A stretch of DNA of 64,000 nucleotides from an uncultured Gammaproteobacteria bacterium (GCA_964651735.1 CAZYYU010000006.1:31945-95944); one strand, 5' to 3'. Positions 39,283 to 40,570 are shown, numbered from the stretch's first letter. Numbers and translations are program-made. Notes: generated by a model from the sequence alone, not told the origin.

Positions 39283-39494
39283 GGGGTCAAACCGAGCCTC
39301 TTTATAAGATTTCTAAATAAATCAAGCGCTTAGAGTCTCCTTCATGCGGTGTCAAACAAGGCTTCTTTTTTTCCGGAGAAATAATTATTGCTAATGCTAC
39401 GATCGAACAAAGAAGCGTGGTTTGACACCGCTAGGGATGAGCTTTAACAAGTTGATTTAAATGAGGATTTTTTGAAGAGGCTCGGTTTGACCCC
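39283..39494 (+). mobile_element. MITE-like nested-palindrome element, copy 2 (full length)
   Basis: Outer inverted repeat ggggtcaaaccgagcctctt / aagaggctcggtttgacccc. Inner inverted repeat gcggtgtcaaacaaggcttctt / aagaagcgtggtttgacaccgc. Starts 5 nt after the upstream stop. Confidence 0.85.
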
Positions 39495-39571
39495 TATATT
39501 TTTCCATTTATTGACCTCATTGTCGGTATTGACGATAATGTAATTGTTATCACATTTGATAGGTGTAAACC

Positions 39572-40357
39572 TTGGAAATTTCGATTTATCATATAGATAC
39601 TTTTACTGACAAACTCTTTTCTGGGAATCCTGCGGCTGTTTGTTTGCTGCCATATTGGTTGTCTGATGATCAGCTATTTGCTATTTCATCTGAAAATAAT
39701 CTGCCCGCAACTGCATTTTTAATCGATCAAGATTCCCATTATGAAATTCGTTGGTTTGCACCAGATTATGAAATTCCTTTGTGTGGTCATGGAAGTCTTG
39801 CGGCAGCTTATGTTATTTTTAATAAATTTAAATCCCCACTTCAAAAAGTTGCACTACATTCAGCAGCTGGAGTATTGGCTGCCAGCCAACAAAATAATGT
39901 GATCACACTTAATTTCCCTCTTAAAAATGCGGAAGAAGTTTCAATACATCCTATTTTACTTAATGGATTAAATATAAAACCTGAAGCAGTTTATCAATAT
40001 CAGAATGAACGCTGTATTGTAGTTTTATCTCATCAATCTGAAGTGGAACAGTTAAAACCAAACATGGAAATTTTACAAGACTATAATTGCTCGGGTATTG
40101 TTGTCACAGCTCCTGGAGAAACTGTAGATTTTGTATCACGAACTTTTTATCCTCGAAATAAAATTAGTGAAGATCCTGTAACAGGTTCATCACACTGTAT
40201 GCTCGCACCTTATTGGGCTAAGCGTTTAGGAAAAAATGAATTAAAAGCCTATCAGGCCTCAGCACGTGGTGGCTATTTAACTTGTACAGTACAAAATGAT
40301 AATGTATTGCTTAGTGCTCAAGCAGTCTTATATTCTCAAGGTAGTATTTTTTTATAA
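39572..40357 (+). CDS. PhzF-family isomerase-like protein
   Basis: IYHIDTFTDKLFSGNPAAVC.. and EIPLCGHGSLAAA are typical PhzF-family motifs. TTG start. 261 aa. Confidence 0.85.
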   Translation: MEISIYHIDTFTDKLFSGNPAAVCLLPYWLSDDQLFAISSENNLPATAFLIDQDSHYEIRWFAPDYEIPLCGHGSLAAAYVIFNKFKSPLQKVALHSAAGVLAASQQNNVITLNFPLKNAEEVSIHPILLNGLNIKPEAVYQYQNERCIVVLSHQSEVEQLKPNMEILQDYNCSGIVVTAPGETVDFVSRTFYPRNKISEDPVTGSSHCMLAPYWAKRLGKNELKAYQASARGGYLTCTVQNDNVLLSAQAVLYSQGSIFL

Positions 40358-40570
40358 GGGGGTCAAACCGAGCCTCTTAAAAAGATTTCTAAGTCAATCA
40401 AGCGCATAGAGTTCACTGCAGGCGGTGTCAAACAAGGCTTCTTTTTTCCGTAGAAATAATTGTTGCCAATGATATGAGCGAAAAAAAGAAGCCTTGTTTG
40501 ACACCGCAAGAGATCGACTTTAACTTGTTGATTTTAATGATGATTTTTTAAGGAGGCCTGGTCTGACCCC
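40358..40570 (+). mobile_element. MITE-like nested-palindrome element, copy 3 (full length)
   Basis: It begins at the nucleotide after the phzF-like stop and ends 3 nt before the dtd stop on the other strand. The inner inverted repeat is perfect: ggtgtcaaacaaggcttctt / aagaagccttgtttgacacc. Confidence 0.85.

Follow-up and report, generated by a model that had tools for sequence, protein, structure and literature searches.

The DNA analysed here is a stretch of 64,000 nucleotides from an uncultured Gammaproteobacteria bacterium (GCA_964651735.1 CAZYYU010000006.1:31945-95944), referred to below as the window. It carries four copies of a non-coding, palindromic repeat of about 200 bases, with core coordinates 3313-3504, 39283-39494, 40359-40570 and 43005-43196 (copies c1 to c4). 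The repeat is probably a new family of small non-autonomous DNA transposon, that is, a miniature inverted-repeat transposable element (MITE), from an uncultured Legionellales-like gammaproteobacterium. An earlier note on this DNA had described the repeat as MITE-like, and the generic marks of a MITE were found: a non-coding length below about 500 bp with long terminal inverted repeats (TIRs), dispersed copies with unrelated flanks, insertion evidence in the form of one replaced gene end (that of an aminoglycoside phosphotransferase, APH), and no transposase in the window.

A profile hidden Markov model (HMM) built from the four copies returned those four only, without a fifth copy in the 64 kb, and the core coordinates lie within 1 nt of those reported earlier. 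The outer motif GGGGTCAAACCGAGCCTCTT had six matches at ≤3 mismatches, compared with 0.01 expected from shuffled sequence, and the inner motif GCGGTGTCAAACAAGGCTTCTT likewise had six at this threshold, compared with 0 expected. The relatedness of the two motifs, already proposed in the earlier note, was borne out by a joint consensus, GGNGTCAAACNNNGCNTCTT, which was matched by 14 of the 16 sites at ≤2 mismatches (0.11 expected). At the same threshold this consensus had no match anywhere in the window outside the elements, and no isolated single sites were seen. A two-part pattern of 24 bases, combining the outer tip with the far inner site, matched all four window copies. No open reading frame (ORF) of at least 90 aa begins inside the elements, no Pfam or NCBIfam transposase lies nearby, and no transposase or integrase was found among the approximately 50 ORFs of the window; the lack of a transposase had been stated before.

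For the analysis of their structure, each element was divided into its two arms, the right one was reverse-complemented, and the resulting eight arms were compared. They align over 92 columns with zero gaps. An element consists of two mirrored 87-nt arms around a centre, each arm carrying a 20-nt outer site, a motif for integration host factor (IHF) and a 22-nt inner site. From the tip inward, the order is the outer site GGGGTCAAACCGAGCCTCTT (columns 1-20), an A-rich stretch, the IHF motif (columns 38-50), a second spacer, and the inner site GCGGTGTCAAAC(A/C)AGGCTTCTT (columns 64-85). One motif underlies both the outer and the inner site, which share GGnGTCAAACnnnGCnTCTT and stand in direct order within the arm, with a start-to-start distance of 65 bp in eight of eight arms. 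The IHF motif corresponds exactly to the consensus WATCAANNNNTTR in five arms and deviates by one mismatch in three; exact consensus matches number 17 in the whole window (both strands), five of them inside elements. Two size classes were distinguished: the short-loop copies c1 and c4 (192 nt, 22-nt centre) and the long-loop copies c2 and c3 (212 nt, 42-nt centre).

Among the eight arms, mean pairwise identity was highest in the outer (88%) and inner (86%) sites, followed by the IHF motif (71%), while the spacers showed 39-54%, compared with 31% expected from composition alone. The left and right arms of the same copy were 67% identical overall and 38-49% in the spacers; for arms of different copies, the values were 69% and 47%, respectively. 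Own-partner arms also paired no better than foreign arms, even when G-U pairs were allowed. Since belonging to the same copy does not make two arms more similar, no compensatory upkeep of the stem is apparent. The conserved sites and spacing, the near-random spacers and the absence of any arm-partner preference therefore argue that the binding sites and their geometry were selected, not the hairpin. The hairpin noted earlier was indeed obtained on folding (predicted RNA -99.2 kcal/mol, z -11.3; DNA -51.5 kcal/mol, z -8.9). The pattern of conservation points to a protein-DNA complex rather than to a selected RNA or cruciform, and the stem would then be a by-product of mirrored binding sites. 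Decaying sites are visible at the right outer site of c3, the left outer site of c4 and the left inner site of c1, and these look like the result of ageing after insertion.

Evidence for insertion was obtained at copy c4. The ORF at 42007-43026 encodes an APH(9)-Ia-like phosphotransferase (387 bits, under the 680-bit cut-off for APH(9)-Ia itself). The 40 best APH(9) homologues end in ..NGVVDIAFKTDE.., and the window protein ends in ..NGVVDI-GMGSNRAR followed by the stop. The outer edge of c4 is the exact point at which it parts from the homologues (..VVDIAFKTDE..). At the DNA level, GTAGATATA is followed by GCATTCAAAAC in the homologues and by GGGATGGGGTCAAACC in the window. In the APH(9)-like gene, the final eight codons and the stop codon come from c4, and the conserved AFKTDE.. 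tail is lost. One copy has demonstrably replaced the conserved C-terminus of a gene. The PhzF protein next to c3 is full length in comparison with solved homologues and was therefore not truncated by that copy.

Further copies were sought in the source metagenome. The window is present in two activated-sludge runs at approximately 6-8x depth, and contigs of these runs were aligned to the single copies at 80% likeness. In each run, 10-21 contigs with the same depth as the window aligned to a copy, and depth over the sites reached about 7-13x the single-copy depth. Similarity ended in a sharp edge at GGGG or CCCC in most of the aligned contigs. From single contigs, 15 flank strings were read, none of them present in the window. 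Over 80-96 nt that include the spacers, several arms on other contigs shared 98-99% identity with the right arm of c1. Two c1-like copies, 829 nt apart, are found together on a contig outside the window. Because of the extra contigs with new flanks and the 98-99% identical arms, the family appears to be larger than four copies and to have been copied in part recently, the contigs being assigned to the same organism by depth and composition. The earlier note had named a lack of further copies, combined with conservation at orthologous positions in distant relatives, as the finding that would speak for conserved regulatory RNA; instead, extra copies with other flanks were found.

The flanks of the copies were compared with regard to the target site. 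Copy c2 has TA directly on each side (39281-82 and 39495-96). In c3 and c4, TA is likewise found on both sides once extra paired tip bases are counted to the element, which reads A GGGGG..CCCC TCTC between TA and TA in c3 and GGGAT GGGG..CCCCC TCCT in c4 (TA at 42998-99 and 43202-03). TA is thus present on both sides in three of four copies, and c1 has it only on its right, the left flank being GT. In the further copies on other contigs, the pooled flanks adjoining GGGG likewise end in TA. Alternative repeats can also be read, namely TATAA on both sides of c3 (40353-57 and 40575-79, if the element is taken as 40358-40574) and TATA on both sides of c4. In AT-rich DNA, the duplication length cannot be fixed by four copies.

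In the mechanism that is proposed, a transposase encoded elsewhere in the genome would bind the four sites, and IHF, by analogy with better-known transposon ends, would bend each end at the midway site and bring the outer and inner sites together. Other transposons work in this way, combining two sites per end with a protein that bends the DNA: the IR/DR ends of Tc1/mariner elements with HMGB1, and the ends of Mu, Tn552, IS10 and gamma-delta with HU or IHF. Insertion would take place at AT-rich targets, probably TA, which may be duplicated, and the element would survive or be tolerated mainly just behind stop codons. Element lineages keeping their binding sites would go on copying while drifting elsewhere, a process expected to leave conserved sites and randomised spacers. 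As side effects, read-through transcripts would carry a hairpin of about 200 nt that could stabilise, process or end them, and outward TTGACC/TTGACA hexamers could seed promoters.

Several points weigh against a mobile element. The copy number was derived from contig depth and not from an assembled genome, and depth and composition are also the grounds on which the contigs were ascribed to the same organism. The duplication is ambiguous, with TA fitting three of four copies, the longer TATAA and TATA repeats also readable at c3 and c4, and GT to the left of c1; TA-rich flanks are moreover common in a genome of 38% G+C. The tips differ as well, c2 beginning at GGGG and c1 and c4 carrying 5-7 extra paired bases. 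Since the native APH tail does not reappear downstream of c4, this junction is not that of a simple insertion, and loss or rearrangement was also involved. A parent insertion sequence with matching ends was not found in the window or with the 18-nt tip in JGI metagenome contigs and IMG/VR. An empty site was not seen, the contig of the close relative breaking off before the c1 site; this contig begins inside tRNA-Leu, so the orthologue of the c1 site was lost at the contig break. Finally, a host role at the individual loci would likewise agree with strongly conserved sites amid saturated spacers.

The last of these points leads to the main rival, in which the host uses a repeat that was domesticated or was never mobile at all, comparable to BIME/RIP (bacterial interspersed mosaic elements), ERIC or Correia repeats. 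A chromosomal DNA-binding protein would act together with IHF on the four sites at gene ends, organising DNA or insulating transcription units. Purifying selection per locus would be expected to preserve sites, IHF motif and an exact spacing of 65 bp amid near-random spacers, and all four copies lie at gene 3' ends, with c3 filling an entire convergent gap. However, the same pattern would result if only lineages retaining their binding sites keep copying. Recent copying is indicated by the arms elsewhere that are 98-99% identical to a c1 arm, one copy destroyed a conserved gene end, isolated single sites are absent from the window, and several sites show the decay described above for c3, c4 and c1. 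The near-identical recent copies and the damaged gene end argue against host use as the whole story, and this explanation is considered rather unlikely.

A further reading, held to be unlikely, is that the build of four sites, two IHF motifs and 65-bp spacing is under locus-level selection, and not only during copying, as host nucleoprotein assembly points at gene ends, or that it represents the recombination sites of an undescribed system moving single genes, PhzF for example, between two copies. If this were true, the repeats would be more than a decaying MITE.

An RNA element, namely a hairpin in the 3' untranslated region that ends transcription or protects the upstream mRNA and is selected for that, was judged improbable. 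In its favour, the predicted hairpin is very stable, and each copy follows a plus-strand gene at 0-19 nt from the stop; the position next to plus-strand stop codons, claimed before, was confirmed for all copies, with c1 located 19 nt after the stop, c2 4 nt after, c3 abutting and c4 overlapping it. However, compensatory change between the arms is absent, also with G-U pairs allowed, no T-run follows the stem, and no terminator is predicted inside any copy. A search of Rfam gave only sub-threshold matches to generic microRNA-precursor hairpins, and the window sequence is present in no RNA run. A selected RNA stem was rejected for want of covariation. A promoter or terminator role was also rejected, as scans gave no more sites than shuffled sequence.

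Recombination sites bounding single-gene cassettes in the manner of integron attC, which could explain the position of PhzF between like-oriented copies, are very improbable. In favour of this reading, the imperfect palindromes with two nested site pairs lie just after ORFs and are conserved only in their sites, c2 and c3 bracket one 786-bp gene, another contig holds two c1-like copies 829 nt apart, and GTCAAAC/GTTTGAC fits the attC core RYYYAAC/GTTRRRY at six of seven positions. However, no integrase is present in the window, and no contiguous array exists, since the c3-c4 interval holds housekeeping genes, some on the opposite strand (dtd, methyltransferase), and c1, next to tRNA-Leu and tig, is 36 kb distant. 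The two boxes are separated by 65 bp and not adjacent, the elements of 192-212 nt are longer than attC sites, and IHF motifs are not an attC feature. An integron attC site was accordingly rejected on its different geometry and the lack of an array and of an integrase in the window.

The MITE family was also compared with known systems. Correia elements have a Neisseria-specific consensus with 26-nt TIRs. A Correia element was rejected, since the ends here read GGGGTCAAACCGAGCC.., the host is Legionellales-like, and length and build are different. Correia elements (CREE/NEMIS, Neisseria) and the present family nevertheless have in common a small non-coding build, terminal inverted repeats, an IHF-type site and TA at the ends (PMC5896051, PMC11602168). 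Placement next to genes, the existence of a long and a short form, and co-transcription as a hairpin, presumed for the present family, are further likenesses. The two differ in an unrelated sequence, another host and a length of about 100-155 nt in Correia compared with 192-212 nt here (PMC5896051, PMC11602168). Unlike Correia elements, which have one IHF motif, the present ones carry two, and their sites include an additional inner pair.

The QMITE1 and QMITE2 families of Coxiella burnetii share with the present one the Legionellales host group, the TIRs, the overlap of gene 3' ends by a few codons and a number of copies in the tens (PMC5896051). QMITE1 resembles it further in its IHF site and has 2-4-bp direct repeats, but differs in a length of 300-400 bp and TIRs of 21-28 nt, and QMITE2 has a length of 150-190 bp, a GTAG core of the repetitive extragenic palindromic (REP) type and 7-11-bp repeats; in this comparison, made by published description only, nested double sites are described for neither (PMC5896051).

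With the IR/DR elements of the Tc1/mariner group (Sleeping Beauty), Tn552 and Mu, the repeat shares outer and inner related sites in direct order, a bending-protein site between them and fixed spacing. TA targets would be a further likeness to Tc1/mariner. For a MITE derived from IS630/Tc1-mariner, a group marked by TA duplication and a DDE/D transposase with matching ends, the TA flanks seen here are suggestive. The TG..CA tips of Mu and Tn552 are not seen, and the analogy is one of build only.

Miniature elements derived from Tn3 (TIMEs) resemble the repeat in ends starting with GGGG(TC), a length of about 200 bp, and end-proximal IHF sites, which some members of the Tn3 family possess, but in PLSDB no transposon end carried by a plasmid was matched over 18 nt or more. 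The 38-nt end of TIMEs opens with GGGG and closes with TAAG. A Tn3-type element was rejected: TAAG at positions 35-38 occurs in no arm (the only TAAG, in the left arm of c3, stands at 32-35), and a 5-bp repeat is readable in c3 only and not in c1, c2 or c4.

The BIME-1/RIP and ERIC repeats of enterobacteria are likewise intergenic, palindromic, IHF-associated and located after genes, but the single 20-nt sites here are non-palindromic and without GTAG, and the sites within an arm are direct and not inverted. REP, BIME and REPIN repeats, in which the unit is an imperfect palindrome of 20-40 nt, frequently containing GTAG and linked to a RAYT gene, were rejected on the non-palindromic single sites, the lack of GTAG and the absence of a Y1-transposase gene from the window. 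The nearest systems in build and setting are the Correia elements and the Coxiella QMITEs, and the nearest in end logic are double-site transposons with a bending protein.

Searches of public collections were in line with the earlier statement that the family was not recognised, as Rfam, PLSDB, phage records, IMG/VR and JGI yielded neither a known RNA family nor any public sequence resembling it. At its gathering and E-value thresholds, Rfam yielded tRNAs and, below threshold, the microRNA-precursor hairpins already mentioned. In JGI metagenome contigs, the two-part 24-base pattern had no match, and the 18-nt tip had eight loci, all chance matches without further similarity; IMG/VR viral contigs contained neither. 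Whole copies gave no blastn match in PLSDB plasmids and phage records, where a 45-nt end produced only AT-rich chance matches at E≤10. The pattern applied to the species-genome collection, GGGGTCAAACCGNGC, has 14 specified bases and is too short, giving at least 119 chance matches in GC-rich genomes; absence from cultured genomes is not shown by it. In the literature, the site strings turned up only in primers and the like.

MITEs are found in 99.6% of Legionella genomes (PMC11602168). They are common and often genus-specific, so that another family, found in a sludge bacterium that is not in culture, is in itself no surprise. The two sites per end, the midway IHF motif and the fixed spacing predict what the transposase complex would look like, and the APH(9)-type homologue offers a concrete case of a gene end rewritten by insertion. 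For marking the lineage in metagenomes and explaining contig breaks, either the HMM or the 15-base site consensus can serve.

Regarding genomic context, the window is core chromosome, with tig-clpP-clpX-lon, rpoD, dnaG, tsaD, mutL, recJ, tamA and tamB. Trigger factor is 39-44% identical to that of Legionella and other gammaproteobacteria, and a single close relative reaches 85% (run SRR9924836), so the lineage is poorly sampled. The tig contigs of both relatives (L120 1-95; L133 1-79) begin just upstream of tig, that of the closer relative, L120, being the one that starts inside tRNA-Leu. No copy was found in the neighbouring loci recovered from relatives, and contigs with APH homologues were not syntenic with the window and likewise contained no copy. 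Eukaryote-like proteins with a U-box, ankyrin repeats or an ML domain are encoded at 40-1431, 18259-18561, 31074-31520 and 36007-38103, a set that suits an intracellular, amoeba-associated, Legionellales-like bacterium.

The position of the individual sites was determined for each copy; in all cases, the left sites and motifs lie on the plus strand and the right ones on the minus strand. The earlier note had placed all copies in the same orientation. This held for c2 and c3, which are 84% identical in forward and 71% in reverse alignment and are assigned to the plus strand, but it was not established for c1 and c4, whose forward and reverse alignments with the other copies are equally good (64-71%).

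Copy c1 (3313-3504, no strand assigned) lies between the stop of the ORF at 1593-3293 and tRNA-Leu (3553-3635), and its inverted repeat reaches further, over 3305-3510 (CAGGGAT...TCCTG). The left arm comprises the outer site GGGGTCAAACCGAGCCTCTT at 3313-3332, the IHF-consensus motif AATCAACCAGTTA (exact WATCAANNNNTTR) at 3350-3362 and a degenerate inner site, GCCGTCTTCAACAAGGCTTCTT, at 3376-3397. The right arm comprises the inner site GCGGTGTCAAACCGCGCAAGTT at 3420-3441, the IHF-like motif TTTCAAGTAATTA (one mismatch) at 3455-3467 and the outer site GGGGTCAAACCGAGCCTGTT at 3485-3504.

Copy c2 (39283-39494) begins 4 nt after the stop of an AstE/aspartoacylase-like ORF (38265-39278). Its left outer site is located at 39283-39302, the left IHF-consensus motif AATCAAGCGCTTA (exact) at 39320-39332 and the left inner site at 39346-39367; on the right, the inner site occupies 39410-39431, the IHF-consensus motif AATCAACTTGTTA (exact) 39445-39457 and the outer site 39475-39494.

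Copy c3 (40359-40570) takes up the whole gap between the stop codons of two convergent genes, PhzF (TAA, 40355-57) and dtd (40574-76, minus strand). It carries the left outer site at 40359-40378, the IHF-like motif AATCAAGCGCATA (one mismatch) at 40396-40408 and the left inner site at 40422-40443, followed by the right inner site at 40486-40507, the IHF-consensus motif AATCAACAAGTTA (exact) at 40521-40533 and the decayed right outer site GGGGTCAGACCAGGCCTCCT at 40551-40570. This copy is the only spacer of the PhzF/dtd convergent pair, and both stop codons use the TA flanking it (40353-40579). The two most similar copies, c2 and c3, lie on either side of the 786-bp PhzF gene and are oriented alike. 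A single gene enclosed by a pair of copies may move or recombine as a unit.

Copy c4 (43005-43196, no strand assigned) ends 21 nt before a TauE-family gene (43218), and the inserted DNA spans 43000-43201 (GGGAT...TCCT). The left outer site, GGGGTCAAACCGTGCAAGAT at 43005-43024, is decayed within coding sequence; it is followed by the IHF-consensus motif AATCAACCAATTA (exact) at 43042-43054 and the left inner site at 43068-43089. The right inner site lies at 43112-43133, the IHF-like motif TTTCAATCACTTA (one mismatch) at 43147-43159 and the right outer site at 43177-43196.

A second, unrelated repeat was also observed in the window, consisting of GC-rich palindromes of about 45 nt, TCCTCCCCCCC-nn-GGGGGGAGGTGCC(CC)GAAGG(GG)CGGAGGGGGG, at 22786-22827, 48166-48212 and 60700-60779. 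The last of these is situated within the mutL ORF (59663-61480), where it forms an in-frame Pro/Gly-rich stretch, ..IPPSAPLGHLPPEGGGLSFAPPSGGS.., in the linker between the Pfam domains DNA_mis_repair (residues 212-328) and MutL_C (419-561), much like the palindromic elements inserted into Rickettsia genes. In addition, a near-perfect inverted repeat, single in the window, is present at 56225-56341, with 32-nt arms that are 97% complementary and 53 nt apart, between the NAPRTase gene (54736-56109, minus strand) and a YjeF-type gene (56370).

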